Origin: an uncultured Gammaproteobacteria bacterium
Lineage (GTDB): Bacteria; Patescibacteriota; Patescibacteriia; Patescibacteriales; UBA12465
NCBI GenBank assembly: GCA_964514675.1
Contig: CAZERN010000001.1
Span: forward strand, 1-24,865
Length of the DNA: 24,865 nt
Direction: 5' to 3'
The position numbers were made by a program, and so were the translations under genes. Within the stretch, counting starts at the first letter, position 1. Every line of letters begins with the position of its first letter. The notes beneath the pieces are model-generated. The model was given only the letters and a program-made list of their open reading frames with translations, had not been told where the DNA came from and made no database searches. This document shows, one piece after another, positions 2,781 through 24,548 of the stretch.

Positions 2781-2856
2781 ACTCTCAAATCTTATAGAAA
2801 AATACCCTTTTAAGCAAGAATTTGCTATATTTAATTTTAGACCCTCTTTGTTATCT

Positions 2857-4761
2857 ATGATCAATAAAAAAATCTTTATTACTGAAGAAGATTTTCTGGC
2901 CGGACTAAGCTTGGTCATGATTTTTGGCAGCCTGGTTTATTTTTTTTACCGACTTGATTGGCCGGGCGTGATTTTAACTTTAATTTTTAGTGCCGGAACT
3001 TTTTATTTTATTCGCCCTTATTTAAAAAAGGAACTAATGATAACTGGTAGCCGGGAGCCAGAAACAAAAATTGACTATATTTTACTAGCCTTTTTCTTGA
3101 TTGCCAGCGCTGCGGCTTGGGCGCTTTTAATTGCTGGCCGAAGTGGGGCCGCTTTAATTTCTCCTTGGCAAACAATTTCCGGTTGGTTCTTTGCCGCTTA
3201 TGCGGCGGCTACTTTTTCCCTCTTAACCCTACTATTTCGGGCTAAACTAAACAATCGCAACCGTTGGCTTTTGGGGGCGCACTACGCCCTCTCCTTTAGC
3301 GTTGCGGCTGTAGTTTATAAATTAGGTTACGGCTTTGATCCTTTTATCCATCAAGCGAGCATGGAGATGATTATTGATCAAGGCTTTATTCTGCCAAAAA
3401 CCCCTACTTACTTAGGAGAATATTCTTTAGTAACCATTATTTCCCGCTTTAGTGGTTTAAGTATTTATAGTCTAAATAAATTTTTAGTACCAATTAGCGC
3501 CGCCTTATTACTACCGGGGGCAATTAAAACTTTAGGCGCTAGTCGCGGTCGAACAACTTCAGTTTTACTAGCTGGAATATTAATACTTATTCTTCCCTTC
3601 ACCTTTTTAATTGTCAGCACTCCTCAAAATTTTGCTTATCTATTTTTACTTTTAGCGCTACTTTATTCTTTATCGGGACAGCGCGTCTTAGCACTCTTGC
3701 TAAGCCTAGCCACTTTCGCCATCCATCCCATCGCCGGCCTACCCGCTTTAAGTTTTTGGGCCTTTAGAGAGCTTGATTATCGCCACCCTTTAAAAAATAA
3801 AAGAAATTACAGAAGGAGACGTAATTTTATTTTCTTAGGAAGTCTAATTTCCCTGCCGCTAGCTTTTGCTCTAATCAACAAGCAGTCACTTCTAAATTTG
3901 CGTTTCTCGCTAAACGGCTTTAACGCTTTAACTTTTTGGCCCAATCACGGCGCTAATCTTGGCCCCTTCTATCTCAATTTTCCCTATCTTTTTTCTTTCC
4001 TTATCTGGCCAGCCTTCATCTCTCTGGCAATTTATGGCGCTTTAAAATGGCGTAATTTTGAAAATGAAAAACTGGCCACCTGGAGAACAATCGCCGCTTT
4101 AATTGGAGCCTGGATGTTAACCGCTTCCCTCTCTTTTGATTTTTTAATTGACTACGAACAGGCTGATTATTTAAAACGTTTAATTTTAATAATCGCCCTT
4201 TACCTGACTCCTTGGCTTATTTCGGCTTTAGGTGAACTGGCCTCAAGAGCACGAGAAAAAAATCTAAAGGGCAAATTTGTCTTTATCCTAGCCGGGACTC
4301 TAATTATTACTAGCAGCCTTTATCTCTCTTATCCCCGCCATGATTTATTTGTAAATTCTCGAGGTTATAGTGTTTCTGAATCTGATTTAGAAGCGGTTCG
4401 TCTAATCGATCAAGATGCCGGCGGCGCTGATTATGTGGTTTTAGCTAACCAACAGACAAGCGTGGCCGCCTTAAAAGACTCTGGTTTTGGGCGTTATTTT
4501 GAAACTGAGGCTGGGTCAGTCTTCTTTTACTCTATTCCCACCGGAGGCCCTCTTTATCAATATTATTTAAGTTGGGTTAATGAAGGCCCGCAAGAACAAT
4601 TAGTTGAAGATGTAAAAGAATTAACACAAGCGCAAAGAGTTTACTTAGTCATTAACCGCTATTGGTATCGGAGTGATCGACTAATTAGCGAAACGCGCCT
4701 TCAGGCACTTAACTCCTGGGTAACCGATGACCAGGAAGTTTATATTTTTAGACTCAATTAA
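2857..4761 (+). CDS. Polytopic membrane protein, possible GT-C-fold glycosyltransferase
   Basis: ORF 2848..4761; likely start ATG 2857. More than 10 hydrophobic segments, a GFDPFIHQA loop motif (DPxxH, seen in GT-C first-loop motifs), DYEQADYLKR and a soluble C-terminal domain. Confidence 0.55.
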   Translation: MINKKIFITEEDFLAGLSLVMIFGSLVYFFYRLDWPGVILTLIFSAGTFYFIRPYLKKELMITGSREPETKIDYILLAFFLIASAAAWALLIAGRSGAALISPWQTISGWFFAAYAAATFSLLTLLFRAKLNNRNRWLLGAHYALSFSVAAVVYKLGYGFDPFIHQASMEMIIDQGFILPKTPTYLGEYSLVTIISRFSGLSIYSLNKFLVPISAALLLPGAIKTLGASRGRTTSVLLAGILILILPFTFLIVSTPQNFAYLFLLLALLYSLSGQRVLALLLSLATFAIHPIAGLPALSFWAFRELDYRHPLKNKRNYRRRRNFIFLGSLISLPLAFALINKQSLLNLRFSLNGFNALTFWPNHGANLGPFYLNFPYLFSFLIWPAFISLAIYGALKWRNFENEKLATWRTIAALIGAWMLTASLSFDFLIDYEQADYLKRLILIIALYLTPWLISALGELASRAREKNLKGKFVFILAGTLIITSSLYLSYPRHDLFVNSRGYSVSESDLEAVRLIDQDAGGADYVVLANQQTSVAALKDSGFGRYFETEAGSVFFYSIPTGGPLYQYYLSWVNEGPQEQLVEDVKELTQAQRVYLVINRYWYRSDRLISETRLQALNSWVTDDQEVYIFRLN

Positions 4762-4825: not shown

Positions 4826-7222
4826 TTAATGACGACTTTCCTGGTAAGAAAAGACTGGACCGACTGCTAAATATTTACCGGAATTAAGCTCATAAACCAA
4901 GGCCATAAGATTAATACCAGTGGTTTGGACCAAAGAATGATTAGGAACTTTAAGCCGAAGTAAATTCTCATTCGGTTCTGTCAATTTATATTGCTTAGCA
5001 AAGGAGCTGATAAAATCTTGATCATTGCCACTTAAAGCTTCATTATTTAATTCCTTTTTAATAATTTCAGCAATTTGATTTAACTTGATATTTTCATCTC
5101 TTAAGGTAACTCCTACCGAGGGAACCTTTTTATTAATCCCCATTCCTAGAAATAAGCCGTTAATCATTTCGTTATCAGCGATAATTTTTTTAACCAAAGA
5201 ATAATTAGGCTCTATGTAAAAGTTATCATTTAAAACAACGTCCGTATTTAAACCGTTACGGTTTTCCGATAACCCGGCCGGGGCAAGGTTGGCCAACGGA
5301 AGCTGCAAATCAACCCAAGATCCAGCCGCAGTATCAACCAAACGTTGCGACCAAGTAGGTGTGCTGGCGTAAATTTGCATCTGCTTATTATTGGTAGAGA
5401 AAAGCGTTTCAATGGTACCGAGGGTGGACCAATAATTAGTATCATGCCAAACCGGCCAAGACTGTAAATCACTCTGGAGCTTGGCTAATTGAGTCGGGTA
5501 TTTTTCATATTGCGAATTGATTTGCCAGTGCGTAGACAGAGCTACTTTATCAGCAACTAGAGCAATTACATCTAAACCGCTACCGTTACAACGCTCGCCG
5601 CCTTCACGACACAAGGTAACATTATTTTTATCATTATTACTTCTAAATCCTTCTTCTCCAGTAAAAACTCCCAATTCAGACCCACTTAGACGCTTAAAAA
5701 TATAATCATTAGGCCAATAATAATCAGCTAACAGTTTAAACCCTAACTGGGACTTATCTTCCCCCTTATCTAAAGCCCCTAAAGATGGATTAAATTTCAA
5801 AGCTAAAAGTTCCTGACGCAATTTTTCTAAATTAGCCTCACTGTCAACATTTTCCCAAGCGAATAGAGTGGCGGGATCATAATCAGCGCCAAACAAATGC
5901 TGCATTGCCTCATCATATTGGCGATAAGTTAAATCATCACGCAGTCCGCGATAATAAGACAAAAGCTTATAAACTAAGGCCCAACGATTTTTTAATTCTT
6001 GATCATTGGAAAAATCTTTAGTAATAAAAGTGGTCGCAGTTAAACTAATTCGGGCATCATCTTTATCAAGCAAACAATCGGGACACTTTTCGTCTTTAAC
6101 GGCCAACGGAAAGACGGAATTAAGCCAACGGCTAGCTAAATAGAAATTTTTTAATTTTTCAGTGCGCTGATATTCAGCCGGAATTTCAAATTCTCGGTAA
6201 TCGCGCTCGTAAAGAAGAACTGGCGATTTAGTTTTCTCCCGGCCACTACGGATTAACTCTACCTCCCGAGCAGCATCTTTTTGTAGATACGGCAGAATAG
6301 TAAAATAAAAGGTGTTTGCTTCACTAGCCCCAAACTTGGTCATACTTTTACTATCCGGATCAATTTGATCAGCCCTCGGCTCCAAAAGTTCTAGGGCAAC
6401 AGCAAAATAGGCCATTGCTAAGCGCTGAGATTCTAAAATGGGATCATTAATATTACCAATCTCTGCCAAACGATTTTCATAACGATAACGCGCTTGTTCA
6501 TAAAGAGAGCGTGAGATTTCGTGAATATTGTTATAAAAAATTGTCTCTTCAATGTCTTTAAAAACCTGTTTAATTGTATTTTGGTGATAGTGTAATAAGA
6601 AATCGCTAGTAATTAAAAGGGGGATGCCTTTACCTGATAACCAAGAATAGGCTCCATAAAAATCAGTTATTTCTTTAGAATCAGGGTTTTGTAAAACTGA
6701 AAAACCGTCCTTGTTTAAATTTTCTAAATACTGATCCAATTCAAGACGACGGGAAAGATCGTAGTAATTTAAAACATCGATTTTTATATTAAGCGGCAAA
6801 GAATAATCAACAAAAGAAAATTCTGGAACTCCTGGCGGGGCTTCATAAAAATCCCGAAAATTATATTTTTCTAATTCGCCAGAAAGTAAAGATTGGTCCC
6901 AATTATCAATACTGGTTGTCGCTTGATCAGTCGGCAAATGCACATCCGTACTAGTCGCCCCTTCTAAGGGGGCTTCGTTTACTGGATCAATAATTACCGG
7001 CTGGGTTGGCGATTTAGGGGGCATTAAGATTCTTACCGAAATCCAAATAGCTAAAGCGAAAATAAGCAAAACGGCTAAGCCGATAAAAATTTTGCGCTTA
7101 TTTTTCTCCCAAAAAGACAGGGGCGCTTCTTCGCTTGAAACCCGAGGAGACAAACCGTTAATAGGCGTCCCGACATCAGGCTTAGGTCTTGAAGTGGCAA
7201 TAGGATCTAAATCAGAAAACAT
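4826..7222 (-). CDS. DUF3160-like membrane-anchored protein
   Basis: 798 aa; one N-terminal TM (IFIGLAVLLIFALAIWISV) and a Pro-rich linker; segments PLLITSDFLLHYHQ..FKDIEE, AAGSWVDLQ, FYIEPN and LAVGPVFSYQE resemble DUF3160 conserved blocks as recalled. Confidence 0.7.
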   Translation of the reverse strand: MFSDLDPIATSRPKPDVGTPINGLSPRVSSEEAPLSFWEKNKRKIFIGLAVLLIFALAIWISVRILMPPKSPTQPVIIDPVNEAPLEGATSTDVHLPTDQATTSIDNWDQSLLSGELEKYNFRDFYEAPPGVPEFSFVDYSLPLNIKIDVLNYYDLSRRLELDQYLENLNKDGFSVLQNPDSKEITDFYGAYSWLSGKGIPLLITSDFLLHYHQNTIKQVFKDIEETIFYNNIHEISRSLYEQARYRYENRLAEIGNINDPILESQRLAMAYFAVALELLEPRADQIDPDSKSMTKFGASEANTFYFTILPYLQKDAAREVELIRSGREKTKSPVLLYERDYREFEIPAEYQRTEKLKNFYLASRWLNSVFPLAVKDEKCPDCLLDKDDARISLTATTFITKDFSNDQELKNRWALVYKLLSYYRGLRDDLTYRQYDEAMQHLFGADYDPATLFAWENVDSEANLEKLRQELLALKFNPSLGALDKGEDKSQLGFKLLADYYWPNDYIFKRLSGSELGVFTGEEGFRSNNDKNNVTLCREGGERCNGSGLDVIALVADKVALSTHWQINSQYEKYPTQLAKLQSDLQSWPVWHDTNYWSTLGTIETLFSTNNKQMQIYASTPTWSQRLVDTAAGSWVDLQLPLANLAPAGLSENRNGLNTDVVLNDNFYIEPNYSLVKKIIADNEMINGLFLGMGINKKVPSVGVTLRDENIKLNQIAEIIKKELNNEALSGNDQDFISSFAKQYKLTEPNENLLRLKVPNHSLVQTTGINLMALVYELNSGKYLAVGPVFSYQESRH

Positions 7223-15433: not shown

Positions 15434-16123
15434 TTAACAATTAAATTTATTCTTTAAATAAGAAACTAAAGCCAAATTACGATCATAATCCATGCGCAAA
15501 GGACCAATTAGGCCAAAAACACCAACCGTGTTTTGATCTTTATATTTCACTAGAACTGTACTTAAAAAAGAACCAAACGGATTTTTTGAGCCGATTAAAA
15601 CATGCTCACTGTAATCTAAGCGCTCAAAGATTTGAGCAATAATCTCTTCTAACTGATCAATTATTACCGAGATATCATAAACAGCTTCTAGTTGTTTAAA
15701 TTCTGGATGCGAAAAAAGATTGGCTAGTCCGGTGTGGTAAACATTATTCTTACTAAAAGCCCAAAAAACAGCGTTATTAGATAACTCAGCCATTTGTTTG
15801 GCAAGAGCTCGGTAAGCCTCATCATCTCTAGAAAAAAGCTGGTCCAGTTGCGCTTCCTCAGTGGTTTTTAAGCGGGGAGGATTATCCTTTAAATCAGAAA
15901 GCCATAACTCGTAAGCAGACTCTGTCGGAATTCGTCCAGAGGAAGTGTGGGGCTGCATTATATAGCCCGCCTCTTCTAGTTCAGCCATCTCATTTCTAAT
16001 CGTGGCTGAGGAAACACCTATTCGCGAGGTTTTGGCCAACATCCCTGAAGAGACCGGCTGAGCAGTCTTTAGATATTCTTTAATGAGCGCTTTTAAAAGC
16101 GTGAGCTTGCGAGAATCTAACAT
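15434..16123 (-). CDS. hrcA: Heat-inducible transcription repressor HrcA (short form, 229 aa)
   Basis: LLKALIKEYLKTAQPVSSG, VSSATIRNEMAELEEAGYIMQPHTSSGRIPT, C-terminal GVFGLIGPLRMDY. Start ATG 16123 lies downstream of the promoter. Confidence 0.93.
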   Translation of the reverse strand: MLDSRKLTLLKALIKEYLKTAQPVSSGMLAKTSRIGVSSATIRNEMAELEEAGYIMQPHTSSGRIPTESAYELWLSDLKDNPPRLKTTEEAQLDQLFSRDDEAYRALAKQMAELSNNAVFWAFSKNNVYHTGLANLFSHPEFKQLEAVYDISVIIDQLEEIIAQIFERLDYSEHVLIGSKNPFGSFLSTVLVKYKDQNTVGVFGLIGPLRMDYDRNLALVSYLKNKFNC

Positions 16124-16142
16124 AAAATTTATTACAACCCTT

Positions 16143-16171
16143 ATTATATAAAAGCTTAGCAGTCTTGTCAA
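16143..16171 (-). promoter_or_regulatory. Consensus sigma70/sigmaA promoter of the heat-shock operon
   Basis: TTGACA (16171-16166), 17 nt spacer, TATAAT (16148-16143). Confidence 0.9.
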
Positions 16172-16224: not shown

Positions 16225-18336
16225 TTAATCCTGTTCATTAGACTGGTCTAAATGCTCACCAAAATACCAAGTTAAAATCTCTCGAGCAACAGCTGCACCC
16301 ACAACACTCCCCTCTTCACCCTCTTCAACTAAAACGGTTAAGACAATCGTCGGCTCCTCAAAAGGGCCAAAGCTAGTAAACCAAGCATGAGGCGCTTTCT
16401 GGGTGGACCATTGAGCAGTGCCGGTTTTGGCAGCCATCGAGACCGGAACAACCTGCAAACTCCGAGCCGAGCCACTAGTAACTGTCTGGCGCATTCCTTC
16501 GCGAACAATTTCTATATTTTTTTGATCAATAAAATCTTGCCGAATAAGTTCCGGTTCAATCTTTTTAAGTACTTCATTATTAGAATCCAATAAGGCGCTA
16601 ACTAAGTGAGGTTTATAGAAATGACCGCCATTAGCAATCGTTGCCGTATAATTAGCTACTTGTAAAGGCGTGACAACGACATCACCCTGACCAATTGAAG
16701 CATGATAGGTATCACCGATATACCAGCGTTCCCCCTTAGCCTTTAGTTTCCAATCAGCGCTAGGGAAAAATCCAGGCACCTCGCCCGGCAAATCAATACC
16801 ACTAATTTCTCCTAAGCCGAAAAGACGCGCATATTTTGATAAGCGATCAATCCCTAAGCCGGTAAAATTATCATAGCCGCCACCAATATAATAAAAGAAA
16901 GTGTTAACCGAATCGGAGATTGCTTTTTTAACATTAGTAGTACCATGACCACCGCTACGCCAATCAGGAAAGAACCACTGTCCGACTTGTAAGCCACCAG
17001 TTGATAAAAAGCTAGTTGTTTCACTAATAATTTTTTCTTGCAAAGCAGCCGCCGCGACTACAATTTTAAAAGTGGAACCGCTCGGGAACCCACCACCTAC
17101 GATACGGTTAAGGAGGGGGCGATCGGGGTCATTTAAATACTTCTCATAATCAGTCTGACTGATTCCAGTGGCAAATAAACGATTATCATAAGCCGGCAAA
17201 GAAACTAGTGCTAAGACTTCGCCACTTCGGGGATCTAAGGCAACGACAGCGCCTCGACTTAAATTCATCGCCTCTAGATGTTTACTTAAAACCTGCTCAG
17301 CGTAACCTTGAAGAGCGACATCTAAAGACAGAAGTAAACTAGCGCCGTCTTCAGCTGGAAGCTCACTAATAATTTTTTTCTGCCGACCTAAAGCATCAAC
17401 TTCAATATTTTTTTGACCCGAAACACCTCTTAATTCTTTTTCCCAAGAAGACTCCAGGCCGGTTTTACCTAAATAATCAATTAAAGAATATTCTTTACCC
17501 CATTTTGTAAGTTCGGCCTGATTAATTTTTCCAGTGTAACCTAAAAGGTGAGATAAGCTGAGTATCGGCTCCTCACTATTTAAAGACTGGGGCGGAAAAA
17601 CATACTCACGTCTAATCTTATTAGAAAGGAAAACCCCAGGAACCTCTTGTAATTTAAGAGCGAGAAGAAGAGCCCGATCGTAATCCAAATTATCCTTAAC
17701 AAATAAGGGCTGATAAGACTCCAGCGAACCAATAACCACCCCATCTAAGAGATTCTTAATTAAAAAATAAGAGGGTGAATCGGTAACTAGAGTTAACCCG
17801 CCCAATTTCTCAACAGAAACATTTTCCTCGCCACGGCTAAGCATCTCTAAATCACCATCTAACCAATAAGCAACCCGCCGGATTAGCTCATCCCGAGTTT
17901 CCTCATCACGCGGCAATTCAATTGGGCGTAAATATAAAACGAAGTTCGCCGCGTTATTAACCAATTGCGTCATTTCTCGGTCGTAAATAATACCCCGCCG
18001 CGCCTCAACAACTTCGGTCCGCAAACGATTACCTTCGGCTAAAGAATAATAGTAGTCCCCTTTAACAACTTGGAGCCAAAAAGAGCGCCCAATTAAAATA
18101 AAAATAAATATCAGAAAAAAGGCAACAATAATCGGCAACTTAGCTAAATCAAAAGTCTTACCAACAAACTCTTTATTACTGCTATCAGCCAAAAAAGACC
18201 GCTCCGTCCAATCAGAGTAGTAATAAGCGTCTTCTAGGTGACCGTAGGAATACTCACCCTCTTTAACAACAAAGGGGTCACCTCCAGCTGACACTCCTCT
18301 TTTTTTAGCACCTCGATGGTGTCGCAAAAACCTCAT
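16225..18336 (-). CDS. mrdA: Penicillin-binding protein 2 (class B PBP)
   Basis: TM, RRGIIYDR, GKTGLE, active-site PSGSTFK (SxxK), SVN (SxN), KTG triad, HAWF. Confidence 0.92.
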   Translation of the reverse strand: MRFLRHHRGAKKRGVSAGGDPFVVKEGEYSYGHLEDAYYYSDWTERSFLADSSNKEFVGKTFDLAKLPIIVAFFLIFIFILIGRSFWLQVVKGDYYYSLAEGNRLRTEVVEARRGIIYDREMTQLVNNAANFVLYLRPIELPRDEETRDELIRRVAYWLDGDLEMLSRGEENVSVEKLGGLTLVTDSPSYFLIKNLLDGVVIGSLESYQPLFVKDNLDYDRALLLALKLQEVPGVFLSNKIRREYVFPPQSLNSEEPILSLSHLLGYTGKINQAELTKWGKEYSLIDYLGKTGLESSWEKELRGVSGQKNIEVDALGRQKKIISELPAEDGASLLLSLDVALQGYAEQVLSKHLEAMNLSRGAVVALDPRSGEVLALVSLPAYDNRLFATGISQTDYEKYLNDPDRPLLNRIVGGGFPSGSTFKIVVAAAALQEKIISETTSFLSTGGLQVGQWFFPDWRSGGHGTTNVKKAISDSVNTFFYYIGGGYDNFTGLGIDRLSKYARLFGLGEISGIDLPGEVPGFFPSADWKLKAKGERWYIGDTYHASIGQGDVVVTPLQVANYTATIANGGHFYKPHLVSALLDSNNEVLKKIEPELIRQDFIDQKNIEIVREGMRQTVTSGSARSLQVVPVSMAAKTGTAQWSTQKAPHAWFTSFGPFEEPTIVLTVLVEEGEEGSVVGAAVAREILTWYFGEHLDQSNEQD

Positions 18337-18465
18337 AAGTCTTATAATAATAGCGAGAGCTTTTTAAAAAAGCAATTAATCGGAAAGTCAAAAAAGCTAA
18401 TCTTCAAGTTTTTTTAAGCTTAATTGTTTTATAATAAAAGTAGCGTTTAAATTATTAGCGAGCCT

Positions 18466-19167
18466 ATGAAACTACTCTTAATTGAAGACGATTTTTTTAT
18501 TGCAAAAAATTTGATTTTATTTTTAAAAAAACGGGGACATTTAATTAATTGGGCTAAAGATGGAAAAACGGGTTTAGAACTCGCCCAAAAAGAAAATTAT
18601 CATTTAATCATTACTGACTATTTGCTCCCAAAACTAAATGGCCAAGAGATTATTAACCATTTACGAGCCTGGGGCTACGATAAACCAATTCTTGCCATCT
18701 CTGTTTGTCAGGAGGTAGAGAAAAAAGTGGCCCTTCTTAATGAAGGAGCTGATGACTACCTGAGCAAACCTTTTTTCTTAGATGAACTGCAAGCGCGAAT
18801 AGAAGCCTTAGTTAGGCGACAACCGGCGATAGAAGCTAATCTCTACTATGATTCAGATTTGGAATTAAGCTCTGCTAAAAGAGAGCTGCTCTACCAAAAT
18901 AAAACAATTCCTTTAACAAACAAAGAATTCCTTCTACTTAAATTGTTAATGACTAACCCCGGTCGAATTTTATCTTGTCAGGAAATCTGCGAACGCGCCT
19001 GGGAAGAGGAGGATTTTTGCCGTCGGAATATAGTTGAAGTTTATATTCTAAAATTACGCGAGAAATTAAAATTTAAAAAACCGTCTCCAATTGAAACAGT
19101 TCCTAGTTGCGGTTATCGTTGGCGAGCGAAAAATTCAAAAATCATTGACCACTTCCCCTCTTACTGA
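18466..19167 (+). CDS. OmpR/PhoB-family response regulator with an intact receiver
   Basis: LIEDD, phosphoacceptor D51 (IITDYLLP), S79, GADDYLSKPF, winged-helix LTNKEFLLL and IETVPSCGYR. Confidence 0.92.
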   Translation: MKLLLIEDDFFIAKNLILFLKKRGHLINWAKDGKTGLELAQKENYHLIITDYLLPKLNGQEIINHLRAWGYDKPILAISVCQEVEKKVALLNEGADDYLSKPFFLDELQARIEALVRRQPAIEANLYYDSDLELSSAKRELLYQNKTIPLTNKEFLLLKLLMTNPGRILSCQEICERAWEEEDFCRRNIVEVYILKLREKLKFKKPSPIETVPSCGYRWRAKNSKIIDHFPSY

Positions 19168-20114
19168 CAATCTAAGCCCAACCGTAACGATTGTAAGTTG
19201 TTGCGCATCAAACTCAAAAATGTGATTCCGGAAATGGTATCAAAACGACCAACATTGTGAGCAGCGTTAAGGGCTAATAATTCAACCCCCGCCCCGCGGC
19301 GAATTAAAGAACCTAAATAAGGCATAATCAGTTCTTCAAAAAAAACATAAGGCTGACCACTTTCCTTTAAATTATCACTAAGAAGAAGGATTTTTTCAGT
19401 ATCGACGCTATCATCTGGAACAAAACCCTGTAAAGACTGGTAATCTAAATCGTAACGCCGCGCTAGATAAGCAAAAGTATTATGACCGGCGATGATAAGT
19501 TCCCGCCACTGACAATTAGCTAGTCCGGCCTCAAATTCTTGATCTAATAAGCGCAACTCTTCTTGATAAGCAGTGGCCCGATTCTGATAAGCATCTTTGT
19601 TACTAGGATCAATTTCTTGATAAGCAAGACTGATAACTTCAACCATTTGAGACGCTAGAGAAAAATCTAGCCAAACATGAGGATCACCATCTTCGCTCGC
19701 TAAATCATTAGCGGTCGCCATTTTATTAGCGATTTCTAATTCGGCTGCCCAGGGCTCTAAAATATCCGAAGTATAGAAAAAGAGAGCTGATTTATTTATC
19801 TCCTGAAGTGTTTCCGTAGTTGGCACAAATTGATGGAGCTCAACACTTGGCGGCAAAATTAGACTAACAGCCGCTTGGTCACCGCCAACAATTCGCGCAA
19901 ATTCAAAAACTGGGAATGAGGCAGTCGCCACCAATAAGCGCCCCGAAGAATCCCGAGACGGCAGCGCCTCCTCAGACGGAGTATTAACTGTTTTTAAAAA
20001 AAATAAATAGAAAGAAAGAATTACTAAAACCAATAAAAGGCCCCCTAAAGAATAGCAAAACCAACGCTTCATTTTATTTTTACCAATTTTAGTCAGCATA
20101 TTATTTAAGATCAA
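19161..20114 (-). CDS. ZnuA/AdcA-like (cluster A-I) metal-binding solute-binding protein, TM-anchored
   Basis: VATASFPVFEF, LPPSVELHQFVP, DPHVWLD, GHNTFAYLARRY, VFFEE. Start uncertain (20114, 20099 or 20072). Confidence 0.85.
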   Translation of the reverse strand: MILNNMLTKIGKNKMKRWFCYSLGGLLLVLVILSFYLFFLKTVNTPSEEALPSRDSSGRLLVATASFPVFEFARIVGGDQAAVSLILPPSVELHQFVPTTETLQEINKSALFFYTSDILEPWAAELEIANKMATANDLASEDGDPHVWLDFSLASQMVEVISLAYQEIDPSNKDAYQNRATAYQEELRLLDQEFEAGLANCQWRELIIAGHNTFAYLARRYDLDYQSLQGFVPDDSVDTEKILLLSDNLKESGQPYVFFEELIMPYLGSLIRRGAGVELLALNAAHNVGRFDTISGITFLSLMRNNLQSLRLGLDCQ

Positions 20115-21186
20115 AAACTGGAATTTCAGACCGGTTGAAAGTTCTAAGTGGCGGCCCCCAAGTTCCTACGCCAGAGGTGGTATAAAGCTTTAAATCGCCA
20201 ACTTGATGCCAGCCATAATGGTAAGGGCCAAAGATTAAACGAGTCAGTACACTCAAAGGGAAAAGTTGACCTCTGTGAGTGTGTCCAGAAAGCTGCAAAT
20301 CAACCCCGAGGGCCTCAGCCGCTTCAATATCCTCTGGTACATGTTTTAGCAACAAGCGCGGCTGCCCCTCATCAGGACTCAAATTAGCTATCTCTGGACG
20401 CAGATAAACATCACCTTCTTCTTGATAATCCCAACCAATCAATTCTAGACCGTCCAACATGACCGCCCGATCATTTAAAACAACAATCCCTTCTGCACGA
20501 AGCATTTTTTCCAAAGCCGATGCATCTAAATAATATTCATGATTCCCAAAGACATAAAAAACGCCATCCGTGGCCTCAAATTTACCCAACTGTTTAACCA
20601 TAGAAGCAACGTCATTCGACTTACCGTCAAAAACATCACCAGTTAAAACTAACAAATCGGGCTCTAAATTATTAACGCGTTGAATTAAATTATTTAAAAA
20701 CTTTACCCCATAAACACCACCATCTAAGTGGATATCGGACAACTGAACAATTCTTTTTCCTTGCCAATATGGAGGTAAATTGTCTAATTCTAGTGAAAAT
20801 TGAACTACTTTCGGCGAAAGAGCTTGAAACAGGCCAATTAGAAAAAGAATCAGGGCCAGCAAAAAACCAAGGCCTGCCAATAAGCGCGGGCTGGATTTTA
20901 AAGGAGTTTTTTTCAAGATAGGTAAAATAATAGCCGCCCCCAGTAAGTAAAAGAGTAACCCCGACCAAAGTGAGCAAAAAAGGGATAACCATTGGATTAA
21001 ATAGCCTCCATTTAAACGAGATAGCGGCAAGAAAATAAAAAAACCAGAAATTAGAAGGAAAATAAGGGCCGCAACAATAATCTTCCCTAATCGGGATAAT
21101 TTCAATAAATCAGCCAACAAAAGCACAACCAGATAAACACCCAGAAAAATAAGAATTCCAAATAAAGCTAAGAATTGGAAAGGCAT
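20101..21186 (-). CDS. Membrane-bound calcineurin-like metallophosphoesterase (YkuE/YaeI-like)
   Basis: N-terminal TMs, then QLSDIH, LTGDVFD, FGNHEYY, LLKHVP, LQLSGHTHRGQ. Confidence 0.88.
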   Translation of the reverse strand: MPFQFLALFGILIFLGVYLVVLLLADLLKLSRLGKIIVAALIFLLISGFFIFLPLSRLNGGYLIQWLSLFCSLWSGLLFYLLGAAIILPILKKTPLKSSPRLLAGLGFLLALILFLIGLFQALSPKVVQFSLELDNLPPYWQGKRIVQLSDIHLDGGVYGVKFLNNLIQRVNNLEPDLLVLTGDVFDGKSNDVASMVKQLGKFEATDGVFYVFGNHEYYLDASALEKMLRAEGIVVLNDRAVMLDGLELIGWDYQEEGDVYLRPEIANLSPDEGQPRLLLKHVPEDIEAAEALGVDLQLSGHTHRGQLFPLSVLTRLIFGPYHYGWHQVGDLKLYTTSGVGTWGPPLRTFNRSEIPVFDLK

Positions 21187-21250
21187 AAAAAAACCAAAAT
21201 AATTGATAGTAATAAGTTTATTATAACAAAATCCTTAAATAATAACATCT

Positions 21251-21895
21251 ATGCATTTAACGATTTTTAATTTTGGTAAAATACCCCAGTCTATAGAAGG
21301 AGTAAATTTCACTTTTGAATTGGGGAACGTGAGCAAGGGCGAGATTTCTATTTCGCCAAAAAGCGAGCTTCTGCTTATTTTCCCAGAAAATAATACTACT
21401 CTCGCTAAAAATCTCTGTCGCCAGTTAAGAAAACAGGGAGTTTTTTTACCAATGATTGTGGTTGGGGAAAAAATCAGCCCCACTCAAGGAAAAATCTTTC
21501 TCAATCAGGGGGCAGATGATTGCTTGCGCGGGGAGTGGAAGATTATTGAACTCCAAGCCCGCCTAGAAGCCCTCCTTCGCCGGCCCGAAATTTTTGTTAA
21601 TTCCCCTTTAAAAATAAAAAACTTAATTATTGACTTCTTCAAACGCCAGGCCTGGATTAATAAAAAAGAATTATTTTTAACGCCCCGAGAATTTGATATT
21701 CTAGAATACTTAAGCAAAAACCAGCAGCGCCTAGTTACCCGCGATGAATTAAGTTTAGAGCTTTGGAATAGTGATTTTAACGATCTTTCTCTGACTGTTA
21801 ATAGTCACCTTTATAATCTTCGTACCAAATTAAAAAAGAGTGGTTCCTTAATATCAATAGCAACGGTTTCCGGAGGAGGCTATTTTTTAAAGTAA
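21251..21895 (+). CDS. OmpR-type winged-helix regulator with a degenerate (pseudo-)receiver
   Basis: C-terminal LTPREFDILEYL, VNSHLYNLRTKL, IATVSGGGY; receiver remnants GADDC and ELQARLEALLRRP but no acidic pocket, phospho-Asp or Lys. Confidence 0.85.
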   Translation: MHLTIFNFGKIPQSIEGVNFTFELGNVSKGEISISPKSELLLIFPENNTTLAKNLCRQLRKQGVFLPMIVVGEKISPTQGKIFLNQGADDCLRGEWKIIELQARLEALLRRPEIFVNSPLKIKNLIIDFFKRQAWINKKELFLTPREFDILEYLSKNQQRLVTRDELSLELWNSDFNDLSLTVNSHLYNLRTKLKKSGSLISIATVSGGGYFLK

Positions 21896-21906
21896 TTTTT
21901 AAAAAT

Positions 21907-22806
21907 ATGAAAATTTTTGTTCTTTTCTTTTTTTTAAGCGCCCCAATCTTAATCGCTGCTCTATTTTTCCAATATTATTATTTTAAGAAAAAACTTTCCC
22001 AAAAGAACAAACTTCTAGCCAGTCAAACCCAGCAAGTTTTAGCTGATTTTAAAAAAAGCCAAGCCAAGGAATTAGAAAAATATCACTGCCTAGTTGAAGC
22101 TGGCCGTCTTGCCGGCGGCATTATCCACGACTTTGCTAACCCCCTAACTGCCCTGGTTTTGAACCTAGAACAAATTCGTTTTCGCGATTTAAGTGAGATT
22201 AAAACGGCAGAGTGGGAACAAAAAATAAATGAGGCAAGCCTCCTCTGTCAAAGAATGACTCATCTCTTAAAAGCAGCTAGTAAGCAATTAAGTTTTCAAA
22301 CAGAAACCAAAGAACTCTTTTCGGTTAACGAAGAGATAGATAATGTTTTAAATCTTTTAGACTGCAAAGCCCGATCTTATAAAGTTAGCCTGCGCAGCAA
22401 TCTCGAGAAAGAAATACTCTTAAATAACAATGCTTTAAAATTCAGTCGAATTATCTGTAACCTTGTCAGCAACGCAATTGAAGCTGTGGATTCACAAAAA
22501 AAGAACTCTTGGGTGGAAATTAAAGCCCGTTTGATTAATGGGCGTCTAATAATGTCGATTACTGATAACGGGCTAGGCCTACCAGAAGACTTAAAAGAAA
22601 AATTATTTGCCCCCTTCTTCAGCACAAAAAAGAAAAAAGGCAATTTAGGTTTAGGGCTAGCGATTGTCTCAGATTTAGTAAGCAAAGATTTTTACGGAAA
22701 AATACGCGTTAGCAGTCAGATTCGAAAATTCACCGCCTTTACAATTGAACTGCCCCTTGAGATTAAAGATATAAAAATCCCAGAAGAGAGCGGGGCTTTA
22801 GGCTAG
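21907..22806 (+). CDS. Sensor-less membrane-anchored histidine kinase
   Basis: One N-terminal TM; H-box AGGIIHDFANPL, N-box NLVSNAIEA, G1 ITDNGLGL, F-box LFAPFFSTK, G2 GNLGLGL. Confidence 0.9.
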   Translation: MKIFVLFFFLSAPILIAALFFQYYYFKKKLSQKNKLLASQTQQVLADFKKSQAKELEKYHCLVEAGRLAGGIIHDFANPLTALVLNLEQIRFRDLSEIKTAEWEQKINEASLLCQRMTHLLKAASKQLSFQTETKELFSVNEEIDNVLNLLDCKARSYKVSLRSNLEKEILLNNNALKFSRIICNLVSNAIEAVDSQKKNSWVEIKARLINGRLIMSITDNGLGLPEDLKEKLFAPFFSTKKKKGNLGLGLAIVSDLVSKDFYGKIRVSSQIRKFTAFTIELPLEIKDIKIPEESGALG

Positions 22807-22876: not shown

Positions 22877-23611
22877 TTAATTAAAAAAATGAAAAGAGTC
22901 AGCTATTTTTAAATCAAAACAATTGCCAGCCGTAAAACCTAAGCCGACATTACATTCTTGCCCCAAACTCCAAAAAGCTACTTTTTTTGCTATCGGGCTA
23001 TAAACTATATAATTGGCGTAATTTACCGGGCAAAGAGTTTCGCCTAAATCTTTCCCACCCCCATTAATCTCAACTCTATAATTCCCCTCAAAACTTGTGT
23101 CTGTTTTTCCTTTATAGCGGCAACCAGCACCAAGCTTATCCTTAATTAATGAATCTAAATCTGACTCGACTTCAGTATCAAAAATAACAATGTGCCAAGG
23201 CAGGGGGTAGGAATTATCATTTTCTTTATATTCAGGGACAAAAGTGTTTTCTATTTTTATTAATTCTCCGGTTTGCAAATCAACTTCAACATTGTATTTT
23301 TGCGTTAAATAAAAATTATTATTTTTATTTAAAACCTGATTAGGAAGGAGTAAATTGAGAATAGCTTTTTCTTCGCTTATATTGCCCCACCATTTATTAT
23401 TAATTGAAGTAATGGGGTAATTAAAACTAAAGCCATATTCTTCATTTTTATATTTTATCCATTCTATTGAATCTCTAACATTTCTTGGCTCGCCTATTGT
23501 CCAAATAAAATAAAAACGGGAATATTGTTTTTTAGTTGCCACTAATATATCTAAATTATCATTTCTAAATAAATACCCCGAGCCCAATTGCTCAATGAAG
23601 CGATAATTATT
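22877..23611 (-). pseudogene. Probably 5'-truncated gene for an extracytoplasmic hypothetical protein
   Basis: No in-frame ATG; the frame stays open up to the IS end (NNYRFIEQLGSGY). Contains WIKYKNEEYGFSFNYP and four Cys but no signal peptide or TM. Confidence 0.55.
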
Positions 23612-24548
23612 TGTGACATTGCAGCGAAAGGTTTACACTTTGGGCCTCACATAACTTTTGCATAGGTGTTAGGCCGTCCATACCAAGTCCTCGATATTTT
23701 TTCTCATAATTATAATAGTGCATAAACAGATTTAGTCTGTATTGCATTTCTTCAAGTGACAATCTGGGCGGAAACCCATATCGCAAGGCCTTCTGGTTTA
23801 GGGTTTTGTGGAAGCGCTCAATCTTGCCGTTTTCTTCTGGCCAGTATGGAGTGTTCTTTCGGTGAACGATATTATATTCCTCTAGTAACAATTTTAGTTT
23901 GCCATTTAGAAATTCGGTGCCCTGATCGGTTCTGATTTTTTGAATTGTAAATGGAGCTCGTTGTAATACCTTTCTAAAAAAATCAACTGTGTTGTCTGCG
24001 TTAGCGGTTGAGTAACTCCAGACAAAGGCCCATCTAGTAGCATCATCAATAATCGTATAGATTACTTTGCCCTGCTTGTAACCGTGTGGATATTTAGTAT
24101 CCATTTGTAGCTCATATCCTGGTATTTTGTGGGCAAATAACTGTTTCTTCCATCTCTTTTTGGTGTCTATATAATAATCAGTATATCTGACTTTGTTTCT
24201 TTTTAAAATGCGATAAATGGTGGTGGGGTGTAAAGTAATATTATGTTCGTGTTGTAATCTGTCAGCGAGCGCCTCTGAGCCATCGAAACGATATTTCTTA
24301 GCTAGCTCAATGACACATAATTCTAGAGCCTCAGTCGTTCGGTTGTGGGCGGGCCCGCTTCTTCTCTTGCTTTGGGCTTCAATGATTCCGGACTCACCAA
24401 AGCGGCGATATCTGAGCAGATGTTTGTGGACGCTTTGCCTTGAGAGGTTCATTTCTTTGGCGACCGAAACAACTGTTTGCTCTTTAGAAACGATATTGTC
24501 TAATTTGGATATTAGTAACTGTATATACTTGGGGTCAAATCGATTCAT
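23607..24548 (-). CDS. IS481-family transposase
   Basis: N-terminal HTH (VAKEMNLSRQSVHKHLLRY), HPTTIYRILKR, DDE motifs LQMDTK, IRTDQGTEF and NGKIERFHKTL; single ORF with no IS3-type frameshift. Confidence 0.92.
   Translation of the reverse strand: MNRFDPKYIQLLISKLDNIVSKEQTVVSVAKEMNLSRQSVHKHLLRYRRFGESGIIEAQSKRRSGPAHNRTTEALELCVIELAKKYRFDGSEALADRLQHEHNITLHPTTIYRILKRNKVRYTDYYIDTKKRWKKQLFAHKIPGYELQMDTKYPHGYKQGKVIYTIIDDATRWAFVWSYSTANADNTVDFFRKVLQRAPFTIQKIRTDQGTEFLNGKLKLLLEEYNIVHRKNTPYWPEENGKIERFHKTLNQKALRYGFPPRLSLEEMQYRLNLFMHYYNYEKKYRGLGMDGLTPMQKLCEAQSVNLSLQCHK
23612..23640. repeat. IS terminal inverted repeat at the transposase 3' end
   Basis: Aligns with the reverse complement of 24601-24631 with two 1-nt gaps and four mismatches. 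Confidence 0.85.

Follow-up and report, generated by a model that had tools for sequence, protein, structure and literature searches.

Genes and spacers of the locus

The stretch examined (the window) is 24.9 kb long and was compared with the loci of relatives in other Patescibacteria assemblies. A sequence-only reading had described five of its genes as encoding an intact response regulator (RR), a metal-binding protein (SBP), a phosphoesterase (PE), a pseudo-RR and a sensor-less histidine kinase (HK). All five ORFs were confirmed at the coordinates and strands listed below and are intact, and Pfam domains and motif inspection of all five genes agreed with these identities. The described geometry, namely the strands, a 64-bp divergent spacer and an RR located 2.7 kb away from the kinase, was also correct.

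16225-18336, minus strand: PBP2, divergent from RR1
18337-18465: divergent intergenic region between PBP2 and RR1, 129 bp, presumed to hold the promoters of both genes
18466-19167, plus strand: RR1, OmpR/PhoB-type response regulator of 233 aa (Pfam Response_reg and Trans_reg_C)
19161-20114, minus strand: SBP, membrane-anchored ZnuA/AdcA-type zinc-binding protein of 317 aa (PF01297, E=1e-49)
20101-21186, minus strand: PE, metallophosphoesterase of 361 aa with four TM helices (PF00149, calcineurin-like)
21187-21250: divergent spacer between PE and pseudo-RR, 64 bp
21251-21895, plus strand: pseudo-RR, aspartate-less pseudo-receiver with OmpR-type winged helix, 214 aa (Pfam Trans_reg_C only)
21907-22806, plus strand: HK, truncated histidine kinase of 299 aa (HATPase_c; DHp and complete CA domain)

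The end of RR1 is separated from the start of HK by 2.74 kb. The convergent RR1 and SBP genes overlap by 7 bp; PE and SBP, the first and second genes of an operon, overlap by 14 bp, and the pseudo-RR gene lies 11 bp upstream of HK. Among the ORFs scanned in the window no further HK or RR was detected, and RR1 is the sole intact receiver in the locus.

About 15 independent assemblies of Patescibacteria contain the same block (the arrangement was found in L001-L009, L013, L014, L015 and L093), and this recurrence ruled out an assembly artefact. Co-conservation, which the sequence-only reading had proposed to check, was observed: the five genes are together in every genome examined that has an SBP orthologue (43-90% identity) or a pseudo-RR. 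Comparison of dN/dS within the window clade indicated that all five genes are under purifying selection.

Conserved and degenerate parts of the encoded proteins

In RR1 the receiver residues D8/D9, D51, S79 and K101 are all present, and dN/dS is 0.05-0.08. The kinase's direct neighbour had been said to lack the phospho-Asp, and the alignment confirmed this; in fact, all five receiver active-site residues (the DD pair, the phospho-Asp, Thr/Ser and Lys) are missing from the pseudo-RR, KPF is replaced by G-x-W, and a 5-residue deletion at beta1-alpha1 shortens alpha1, the canonical kinase-docking helix. Models of full-length RRs match the protein from residue ~54 onwards only. The AF2 model (pLDDT 84.5) has the (beta-alpha)5 fold, in which alpha1 is short and alpha2 vestigial, and a Foldseek search with it matched full-length OmpR-family RRs, including the atypical GlnR, RitR, CosR and HP1043. 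The dN/dS values were 0.12-0.29 in the N-terminal half and 0.07-0.10 in the C-terminal half. A role in DNA binding or as a heterodimer is plausible for the pseudo-RR, because its alpha4-beta5-alpha5 face is conserved in the alignment and CmrR/CmrT provides a precedent (PMC12548384).

The 3′ 34 bp of the divergent spacer (21217-21250, TTTATTATAACAAAATCCTTAAATAATAACATCT) are nearly invariant in the window clade and presumably represent the core promoter and 5′-UTR of pseudo-RR-HK. The TATTATA(A/G/C)C element of the spacer is also found in L015, L023 and L016. Promoter-like matches around the spacer were no more frequent than expected from shuffling, and clade alignment and motif scan established no operator repeat within the 64 bp.

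That the kinase is sensor-less was borne out as well, since it has one TM helix and no sensor domain. This helix is a predicted anchor (residues 3-21) that leaves 2 residues on the outer side of the membrane; every relative that does not belong to the window clade has a 4-6-TM input domain, which is missing here. The catalytic residues H74, N185/N189, D220-G222-G224, the F box and G248/G250 are kept; the catalytic motifs are invariant, and dN/dS of the core is about 0.10 in the window clade, with residues 1-60 relaxed (up to 0.5).

The SBP has an N-terminal anchor (residues 15-33) and, like the cluster A-I metal SBPs (ZnuA, AdcA, Lmb), a PF01297 fold with three Zn-type His ligand motifs, here H94, H146 and H211; among solved structures AdcA, YcdH and Lmb are its best relatives, and dN/dS is 0.11-0.13. 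Unlike those proteins, it is translationally coupled to a membrane metallophosphoesterase, and no ABC permease or ATPase was found beside it in any of at least 12 orthologous loci examined. Orthologues at 43% identity or more (43-90%) are always within this locus, and a relative at 39% identity sits in a ZnuABC operon. In PE the motifs DIH151, GDVFD183, GNHE214 and GHTH301 are intact and dN/dS is 0.06-0.11. Its catalytic domain is YaeI/LpxG-like, although the NCBIfam LpxG and YaeI matches were far below the cut-offs, and positive-inside loops at 25-35 and 92-101 predict that residues 121-361 are outside, so that by topology prediction both this domain and the SBP face outward. The SBP-PE pair never occurs away from TCS genes in this lineage. 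From the sequences, PE and SBP look more like divergently transcribed, regulated, Zn-dependent and outward-facing outputs than like sensors.

Relatives and the stepwise origin of the locus

In most relatives a classical module consisting of an OmpR-type RR, a peptide gene, a 4-6-TM HK and gene Z is divergent from PBP2, and about 45 classical loci have HrcA, PBP2 and then the divergent RR and HK. The peptide gene encodes 25-57 aa, is secreted-peptide-like and ends with G-x-P-W. The PBP2-adjacent slot, which is the promoter of this module in those ~45 relatives, is the 129-bp region of the window, and it is largely conserved across the window clade despite near-saturated synonymous sites. In a subgroup, the RR (RR1) is all that remains of the classical module; these genomes have a second complete module of a sister type, RR2-peptide-HK-Y, whose transcription diverges from that of a phosphoesterase-SBP(-CapA) operon. 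This non-classical type comprises RR2, a peptide (MxKLIKEVLTN...VGQPWG), the HK N-terminal domain and a long Y; neither Y nor Z matched the polyprenyl-synthase family or any other family.

The subgroup presents three states. L023 and L094-L097 have RR1, CapA, SBP and PE, followed by divergent intact RR2, which occupies the pseudo-RR slot, the peptide gene, a full HK and Y. L015 and L093 have the same arrangement except that RR2 is Asp-less, with the full-length HK, the peptide gene and Y present. In the window clade the HK is truncated, and the peptide gene and Y are absent.

RR1 nests within the classical RR clade in the tree (bootstrap of the RR1 clade, 0.67), and we infer from the sequences that it is orthologous to the RR found beside PBP2 in the classical module and survives from a sister module whose own kinase is gone. 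The possibility that RR1 is the displaced partner of the window HK was rejected on the same grounds. Judged by position, the pseudo-RR descends by decay from RR2, with which the kinase was originally paired; a clade of pseudo-RR and RR2 was not recovered in the tree (0.04). Similarly, the NJ tree of the HK core did not join the window, L015 and L093 kinases with the L023-type kinases (bootstrap 0.02), which we attribute to long-branch attraction to the truncated sequence. The homologies of HK and of pseudo-RR/RR2 are based on position, mean distances and the similarity of the N-terminal domain, which in the full-length orthologue of L015 (451 aa) is closest to those of L016 and L023 (bootstrap 0.58). 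Between L015 and L093, for which dS is saturated, HK dN was 0.21 with a TM-domain dN/dS of 0.075, dN/dS of the peptide gene was 0.21 and dN of Y was 0.31. These comparisons show the order of events: loss of all phospho-acceptor residues in RR2 came first, and the peptide gene, the kinase membrane sensor and Y disappeared together later, in the window clade only.

Likely substrate, outputs and alternative explanations

The proposal that HK phosphorylates the distal RR found circumstantial support. RR1 is the likely substrate of HK, because the kinase keeps its catalytic motifs under constraint even in genomes whose adjacent regulator is Asp-less, including L015 and L093, in which HK is full length. 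RR1 itself is intact and constrained in every genome with an Asp-less pseudo-RR, and it stays at the locus in all ~15 genomes. In work on PhoQ, the specificity positions of DHp alpha1 are reportedly His+7, +8, +11 and +12; these are T-A-L-N both in the window HK and in the classical kinases partnering RR1 orthologues. A relative-rate test detected no acceleration of RR1 or HK at the decay of RR2, therefore no positive signature of a partner switch is seen, and since alpha1 differs between RR1 and RR2, recognition of both by one kinase is not self-evident.

These last points would fit two independent units, in which RR1 is served by a kinase elsewhere or by small-molecule phosphodonors, or acts unphosphorylated, and the pseudo-RR and HK make up an atypical pair of their own, HK either controlling the pseudo-RR by binding or sequestration rather than Asp phosphorylation or slowly decaying as a relic. 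In L023-type genomes RR1 had no kinase even though HK has its own intact RR2 there, residues 1-60 of HK are relaxed, and, according to a review of pseudo-receivers, orphan RR genes mostly code for typical receivers (PMC12632262). However, strong purifying selection on the HK catalytic core in all pseudo-RR genomes is hard to explain without a phospho-acceptor, the kinase-docking helix of the pseudo-RR is truncated, and RR1 has persisted at the locus throughout; we consider two units rather unlikely, though a serious competitor.

The sequence-only reading had also taken the SBP or phosphoesterase as the signal source, so that sensing of metal or phosphoester is passed through HK to RR1 and the pseudo-RR modulates DNA binding. 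Some intramembrane-sensing kinases, such as BceS and LiaS, depend on accessory membrane proteins, the TM helices of PE and the anchor of SBP could contact the single helix of HK, and this SBP lineage is invariably found together with PE and the TCS genes and has no adjacent ABC partner. Nevertheless, docking in the manner of HptA-HptS is impossible for a kinase exposing just 2 residues. Moreover, PE and SBP already occupied this position when the kinase was still equipped with a multi-TM sensor of its own and a peptide gene; the association is older than the loss of the sensor, and therefore neither was recruited to replace it. A divergent operon beside a TCS is also the classic layout of regulator and target, and a sensory role of SBP or PE seems improbable. 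The genes could, finally, be mere neighbours through genome-wide synteny in reduced Patescibacteria genomes, as every locus, classical or not, shows the flanking dnaK-hsp20-grpE-hrcA-PBP2 block conserved to the same degree. We judge this to be just as improbable: synteny ends immediately past Y or HK, giving way to ProRS, a cation ATPase, TspO, a MarR-like gene or an IS element depending on the genome, the SBP-PE pair is not seen apart from TCS genes, and joint loss of the peptide gene, kinase TM domain and Y indicates that at least the TCS side is a functional unit.

The explanation we prefer, to which we give an even chance as a whole, combines the sister-module history with HK acting on RR1, the pseudo-RR at the promoter and PE/SBP as outputs. 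The membrane-tethered HK would still autophosphorylate on H74 and serve as kinase and/or phosphatase for D51 of RR1, the only phosphorylatable receiver nearby, with an input that may now be cytoplasmic, intramembrane or constitutive. The pseudo-RR would bind DNA independently of phosphorylation at the conserved divergent promoter, regulating its own gene and the PE-SBP operon, possibly as a homodimer or, as in CmrR/CmrT, as a heterodimer with RR1~P through alpha4-beta5-alpha5. PE and the transporter-less zinc SBP would be regulated outputs rather than sensors, namely a Zn-dependent exo-phosphoesterase and its dedicated metal-binding partner.

The closest known analogue is CmrRST of C. difficile, which consists of the typical OmpR-family RR CmrR, the kinase CmrS and the pseudo-receiver OmpR-family RR CmrT (PMC12548384, PMC12632262). 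Both systems have one kinase with one phosphorylatable and one aspartate-less OmpR-type RR, the pseudo-receiver is non-orphan in both, which a review reports for just CmrT and FrzS out of the 20 atypical RRs it describes (PMC12632262), and the alpha4-beta5-alpha5 dimer face is kept, making homo- or heterodimers plausible (PMC12548384). In contrast to CmrRST, the three genes of the window are not in one operon, RR1 being 2.7 kb off with the PE-SBP operon between, the pseudo-receiver retains none of the five active-site residues, compared with a D-to-E change in CmrT, the sensor of the kinase is gone, and there is no sequence orthology. The atypical OmpR/PhoB regulators (H. pylori HP1043/HsrA, Chlamydia ChxR, actinobacterial GlnR, streptococcal RitR and Campylobacter CosR) resemble the pseudo-RR in their degenerate receiver and intact winged helix, from which phosphorylation-independent DNA binding is expected, but they are mostly orphans, whereas the pseudo-RR adjoins a conserved, catalytically intact kinase. 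S. aureus HptA-HptS, BceS-BceAB and LiaS-LiaF share a kinase without its own sensing domain beside membrane or extracytoplasmic proteins; the window differs in having no extracytoplasmic loop on HK for SBP docking, no transporter and an SBP/PE association older than sensor loss.

Comparison with Bacillus ComQXPA applies to the ancestral module of the relatives, not to the window, which has lost the peptide gene, TM domain and Y. What the two share is a short peptide gene whose conserved Trp lies within 1-3 residues of the C-terminus, together with a multi-TM kinase, an RR and a neighbouring gene of ~280 aa that has two Asp-rich motifs, and ComP variants without the TM domain are recorded in a census (PMC4008528). 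However, Y/Z has no polyprenyl-synthase family match, the kinase does not belong to the HisKA_3 type, the RR belongs to the OmpR and not the NarL type, and the gene order differs. The origin of the locus can be traced, from gene order and sequence, to a merger of two sister modules, and we think it about as probable as not that the locus represents a late, streamlined stage of a signalling neighbourhood specific to Patescibacteria.

Composition of the locus

The five genes lie on a low-GC (~39%) genome fragment of Patescibacteria/Parcubacteria type, and matching DNA comes from landfill, wastewater, bioreactor and sediment metagenomes. The sequences compared are MAG-derived, genes were called by ORF extension, and the trees are distance-based. 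The genes are as follows.

18466-19167, plus strand: RR1, response regulator with PF00072 (E=7e-22) and the winged helix Trans_reg_C, PF00486 (E=7e-21)
19161-20114, minus strand: SBP, of the ZnuA family (PF01297, E=1e-49)
20101-21186, minus strand: PE, four-TM calcineurin-like metallophosphoesterase (PF00149, E=5e-15)
21251-21895, plus strand: pseudo-RR, in which Pfam detects the winged helix only
21907-22806, plus strand: HK, kinase with PF02518 (E=1e-20), a complete CA domain, one TM helix and nothing else

The sequence-only reading of this DNA was correct on all five ORFs, on the 64-bp divergent spacer between PE and the pseudo-RR, on the 2.7-kb distance between RR1 and HK, and on D51 of RR1. 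Alignment indicated that the receiver active site of RR1 is complete (D8, D9, D51, S79, K101). SBP has AdcA, YcdH and Lmb as its best solved relatives and carries three His-ligand motifs, and the catalytic motifs of PE are all present (DIH151, GDVFD183, GNHE214, GHTH301); assignment of PE as LpxG or YaeI was rejected because its scores lie below the NCBIfam cut-offs (83 vs 350 bits and 74 vs 188 bits, respectively). Upstream of RR1 is dnaJ-dnaK-hsp20-grpE-hrcA-PBP2, downstream of HK are a family-less ORF and an IS transposase, and no further kinase or receiver was detected among the scanned ORFs of the window.

Over 16 homologues, HK keeps H74 (HDFANPL), N185/N189, D220-G222-G224, F234/F237 and G248/G250 invariant. 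Pfam HisKA was undetected, but the DHp is spanned by alignments to NCBIfam kinase models, and the H box is HisKA/NtrB-like. The window kinase is devoid of a signal-input domain, having a single TM helix (residues 3-21) with 2 residues outside the membrane, and the kinases of relatives have an input domain of ~190 aa with 4-6 TM helices; the window-clade kinases align with this ancestral domain at its last TM helix only.

In the pseudo-RR, the DD pair, the phospho-Asp, the Thr/Ser and the Lys are all substituted in 8/8 aligned sequences, KPF is changed to G-x-W, and five residues are deleted at beta1-alpha1; the alpha4-beta5-alpha5 face is kept (GADDxL.G.W..EL.ARL.AL.RRP). PF00072 was not detected in it by Pfam search, and its alignment to NCBIfam full-length RR models starts at residue ~54. 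The AF2 model (pLDDT 84.5), made from an alignment that contained normal RRs, has a (beta-alpha)5 fold with clear beta1-5 and alpha3-5, a short alpha1 and a vestigial alpha2. Foldseek matched this model to structures of full-length OmpR-family regulators, among them the atypical GlnR, RitR, CosR and HP1043. Between window-clade genomes, dN/dS of the pseudo-RR is 0.10-0.17 for the whole gene and is lower in its DNA-binding half (0.07-0.10) than in its receiver half (0.12-0.29); these values indicate a gene that is still functional rather than a pseudogene. The corresponding values are 0.05-0.08 for RR1, 0.11-0.13 for SBP, 0.06-0.11 for PE, and 0.09-0.16 for HK (catalytic core ~0.10), and all five genes are judged to be alive.

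Elsewhere in the window, the mechanical ORF of HrcA (15434-16171, minus strand, 245 aa) begins with TTG and is 16 residues longer than the 229-230 aa of relatives; the true start is probably an internal Met (MLDSRKL...). A 637-aa ORF without Pfam family (2848-4761, plus strand) shares ~70 bp with the 5' end of an ORF for a PMT_2-like glycosyltransferase, and a 798-aa DUF3160 protein is encoded beside it (4826-7222, minus strand).

Synteny and the peptide module of relatives

Loci of relatives are designated L001-L098, and the window clade consists of the window with L001-L009, L013 and L014. Close relatives, in which the pseudo-RR has 61-78% identity, keep the five genes but the entire flank as well, which makes them uninformative. 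In ~45 classical loci from species-representative genomes, an RR divergent from PBP2 is followed by an HK of ~460 aa, whose N-terminal domain has 4-6 TM helices, and then by a conserved gene Z (~280 aa). The order in L023 and L094-L097 is PBP2, a divergent RR1, a convergent CapA-SBP-PE, a divergent intact RR2 (the counterpart of the pseudo-RR), a full-length HK and a gene Y. L015 and L093 have this layout minus CapA, with an Asp-less RR2, an HK of 443-451 aa and Y present; in the window clade, RR2 is Asp-less, HK is 290-299 aa and Y is absent. PBP2 and HrcA identity to the window is ~75% for L015, 60-65% for L023-type and 50-64% for classical loci, ranking the locus groups as would be expected. 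The kinase, a typical OmpR RR and the pseudo-receiver RR lie within 4.3 kb and are co-conserved, RR1 being a separate transcription unit. Co-conservation of the five genes holds in the genomes examined that carry the SBP orthologue or the pseudo-RR.

L016 was considered as an independent cassette of PE divergent from RR-HK, and this was rejected because its contig starts inside the PE gene; it is probably an L023-type locus. A PGA_cap/CapA-family gene follows SBP in L023 (4415-5449, minus strand) and, on the plus strand, in L094 (8946-10004), L095 (8936-9988), L096 (8921-9991) and L097 (8924-9976). CapA, which has a metallophosphatase fold, belongs to the older form of the operon; L015, L093 and the window clade lack it, which indicates that the output operon was streamlined too. 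In the window, the slot of Y in relatives is occupied by a 236-aa ORF without family (22877-23587, minus strand), for which no homologue was found in any fetched locus, and then by an IS-type transposase with rve and HTH domains (23607-24548, minus strand). Other window-clade genomes carry different small ORFs downstream of HK, so that this boundary appears rearranged.

Between RR and HK, 49/98 loci have a micro-ORF of 25-57 aa, for example L010:6842-6925(+), L012:6846-6956(+), L015:8314-8421(+), L023:8240-8347(+) and L095:5929-6036(-). The window is without it, 11 bp separating 21895 and 21907. Codon-position entropy of 0.04/0.09/1.41 bits indicates that the micro-ORF is translated, and its C-terminus is an invariant G-x-P-W followed by 0-2 residues. 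The classical peptide has a basic N-terminus, then a hydrophobic and an A-x-A-like stretch, and ends with (S/L)NPGTPWR(D/N/Y); the non-classical peptide, MxKLIKEVLTN...VGQPWG, is found in L023, L015, L016 and L093-L097. The product resembles a peptide-pheromone precursor exported by Sec, or else a small membrane protein that partners the kinase. The gene directly after HK (Y or Z) is conserved in >60 loci, at ~280 aa in classical modules and 420-700 aa elsewhere, examples being L010:8367-9218(+) (Z, 283 aa), L015:9782-11035(+) (Y, 417 aa) and L023:9775-11265(+) (496 aa). It has two invariant Asp-rich motifs, IYDDFxD and QLxDDAxDWxxDLxxG, plus LPxAN...R, and no match to Pfam, NCBIfam or PDB sequences. 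Its identification as ComQ or a polyprenyl synthase was rejected, the best match, to octaprenyl-diphosphate synthase, having E=0.94 and covering no more than the DDxxD segment; that Y/Z might be prenyltransferase- or terpene-synthase-like is a motif-level guess. The window clade lost the micro-ORF along with the TM domain of the kinase and Y.

Proposed partners and output of the kinase

RR1 nests within the clade of classical, PBP2-adjacent RRs (RR1 clade bootstrap 0.67) and carries signatures of the classical type, for instance D-Y following the phospho-Asp. RR2 of L023 and L016 groups outside this clade with non-classical RRs, and Y of L015 is of the long, non-classical type. Since the types of RR2, HK, Y and peptide track one split, RR2, the peptide gene, HK and Y form one co-inherited non-classical module, and RR1 is the surviving regulator of a classical module that lost its peptide gene, kinase and Z.

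By position, the pseudo-RR is read as a decayed RR2, and RR2 is the group nearest to it by mean distance (RR2 1.34, classical RRs 1.46, RR1 1.68). The NJ tree of RRs did not recover a clade of pseudo-RR and RR2 (bootstrap 0.04, or 0.01 with residues 60 onward), the long branch of the pseudo-RR being attracted by a different divergent RR. Similarly, the HK-core NJ tree did not join the clade of window, L015 and L093 kinases (bootstrap 1.0) to the L023-type kinases (0.02), and drew it to L040, a truncated sequence. Both unrecovered groupings are long branches attracted to aberrant sequences. Because the HK-core tree fails, we relied on position, N-terminal-domain similarity, peptide type and Y type: the L015 kinase's N-terminal domain is closest to L016 and L023 (40% and 35%, others ~31%), and the tree of this domain joined it to L023-type kinases with a bootstrap of 0.58.

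The sequence-only reading had proposed that SBP or PE supplies the signal, that HK phosphorylates D51 of RR1 and that the pseudo-RR modulates DNA binding. Co-conservation held and the link from HK to RR1 is favored, but by position the ancestral partner of the kinase is the pseudo-RR, not RR1, and a sensor role of SBP or PE is not supported. Comparison of L015 with L093, whose synonymous sites are saturated, gave a dN of 0.21 for HK with dN/dS of 0.075 in its TM domain, dN/dS of 0.21 for the peptide gene and dN of 0.31 for Y. A sensing module under selection beside a neighbor incapable of taking phosphate means that another output must exist. RR1 has no kinase next to it and is the sole intact receiver of the locus; its catalytic residues are complete in every genome with an Asp-less RR2, and it is never off the locus. 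At His+7, +8, +11 and +12 of DHp alpha1, the positions that dominate partner choice in the PhoQ/EnvZ work, the window HK and the classical kinases partnering orthologues of RR1 share T-A-L-N, which makes cross-recognition of RR1 by HK plausible; this motif is family-wide, however, and alpha1 differs between RR1 and RR2. Such cross-recognition could account for the classical kinase becoming dispensable. Retuning of the DHp was also considered, the window LNLEQIR resembling the classical LNLEQIK as opposed to LNINKVK of L023, and was rejected because LNLEQ is the family-wide ancestral state. In relative-rate tests, neither RR1 (from 2.7x to 1.6-2.2x the PBP2 rate) nor HK (2.2-2.5x throughout) was accelerated as RR2 decayed, and RR2 alone accelerates, from 2.3x to 3.0-3.5x. 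A branch of one kinase and two regulators that already existed at the L023 stage would fit these sequences best. The link from HK to RR1 is the best-supported wiring, and we give it roughly an even chance.

According to the positive-inside rule, the catalytic domain of PE (residues 121-361) and the body of SBP are outside the membrane. HK has only 2 extracytoplasmic residues, and the SBP/PE association is older than the loss of the sensor. TM-TM input from SBP or PE to the kinase is conceivable, but nothing supports it. RR2 and the SBP-PE(-CapA) operon were divergent already while the kinase kept its membrane sensor and the peptide gene, and since this position predates the sensor loss, regulator-and-target is the simplest reading. 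The output would then be a Zn-dependent exo-phosphoesterase with a dedicated metal-binding protein, to which the older state added a CapA-type enzyme. Every SBP orthologue with 43-90% identity is in the locus, downstream of the PE gene, no ABC permease or ATPase adjoins SBP in the window, L015, L023 or L093-L097, and the nearest outgroup (39% identity) is in a canonical ZnuA-ZnuC-ZnuB operon of a diderm (L098:8001-10529). Members of the SBP lineage with at least 43% identity are translationally coupled to the membrane metallophosphoesterase, and SBP may be a metallochaperone for exo-enzymes.

The 3' 34 bp of the spacer between PE and the pseudo-RR (21217-21250) is near-invariant across the window clade, although synonymous change there is close to saturation, and contains a TATTATA(A/G/C)C element found also in L015, L023 and L016. 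We read this stretch as a putative core promoter and 5'-UTR. Search for operator repeats common to both intergenic regions gave AT-rich near-matches only (AATAATARC-like), and promoter-like matches were at chance (18 vs 13.3 +/- 4.3 in shuffled sequence). At the other end of the locus, the RR is divergent from the PBP2 transpeptidase gene near hrcA-grpE-hsp20-dnaK-dnaJ, in the window (18337-18465) as well as in ~45 classical loci, thus over much of Patescibacteria, and this arrangement suggests that the PBP2-adjacent module may control either the synthesis of the cell wall or the heat-shock cluster.

Taken jointly, these observations allow a tentative reading, which we hold to be possible but rather less probable than the HK to RR1 link: the window locus would be a stripped remnant of an undescribed, Patescibacteria-wide peptide-signalling module that was rewired after loss. 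Besides an RR and a multi-TM receptor kinase, the ancestral module would comprise a Sec-exported 8-9-mer (...NPGTPWRD or ...VGQPWG) and Y/Z, the latter as a Trp-modifying or peptide-processing enzyme. The window lineage would have given up signal production and reception together with the peptide gene, receptor domain and Y, the leftover kinase would have been rewired onto the orphaned RR of the sister module, and the old partner would be retained as a phosphorylation-independent co-regulator.

Relation to known systems

The closest functional analogue is CmrRST of C. difficile, in which a kinase is combined with two OmpR-type RRs, one typical and one with a pseudo-receiver; homo- and heterodimers are reported (PMC12548384). 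Unlike CmrRST, the window system is in separate transcription units, has lost the whole receiver active site in its pseudo-RR, has a sensor-less kinase, and has an origin traceable to module merger. The HptA-HptS type is excluded for the window because the extracytoplasmic docking region that defines it is absent, HK having 2 residues outside. The ancestral module in relatives follows a ComQXPA-like logic: the peptide has a C-terminal Trp, the kinase is multi-TM and the ~280-aa neighbor gene carries two Asp-rich motifs; a ComX-like prepeptide with C-terminal Trp is found in relatives only. However, Y/Z is without a match to PF00348 (ComQ isoprenyl transferase), and whereas ComQXPA has a HisKA_3 ComP and a NarL-type ComA, the relatives have a HisKA/NtrB-like kinase and OmpR-type RRs. 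ComP variants without TM domain are recorded in the ComQXPA census (PMC4008528). Our literature search on two-component systems in Patescibacteria found nothing specific.

Among 20 pseudo-receiver regulators in a review, only CmrT and FrzS are encoded beside a kinase (PMC12632262). On how kinase-adjacent pseudo-receivers are integrated into pathways, this locus supplies natural intermediates in sequenced relatives: an intact partner, then an Asp-less partner with a full kinase, then an Asp-less partner with a sensor-less kinase. The prediction is that the kinase now serves the orphaned regulator of the sister module, and the proteins are small and expressible though the organisms are uncultivated. 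If the remnant reading is true, the locus would be a natural stepwise case of two-component pathway rewiring following module merger. A transporter-less lineage of ZnuA-like SBPs, coupled to a metallophosphoesterase that faces outward, is a further product of the comparison, which also reveals a conserved, translated micro-peptide gene with a putative partner enzyme (Y/Z) in a Patescibacteria-wide two-component module. If this module is a pheromone system, it would bear on the communication of ultra-small, often episymbiotic bacteria.
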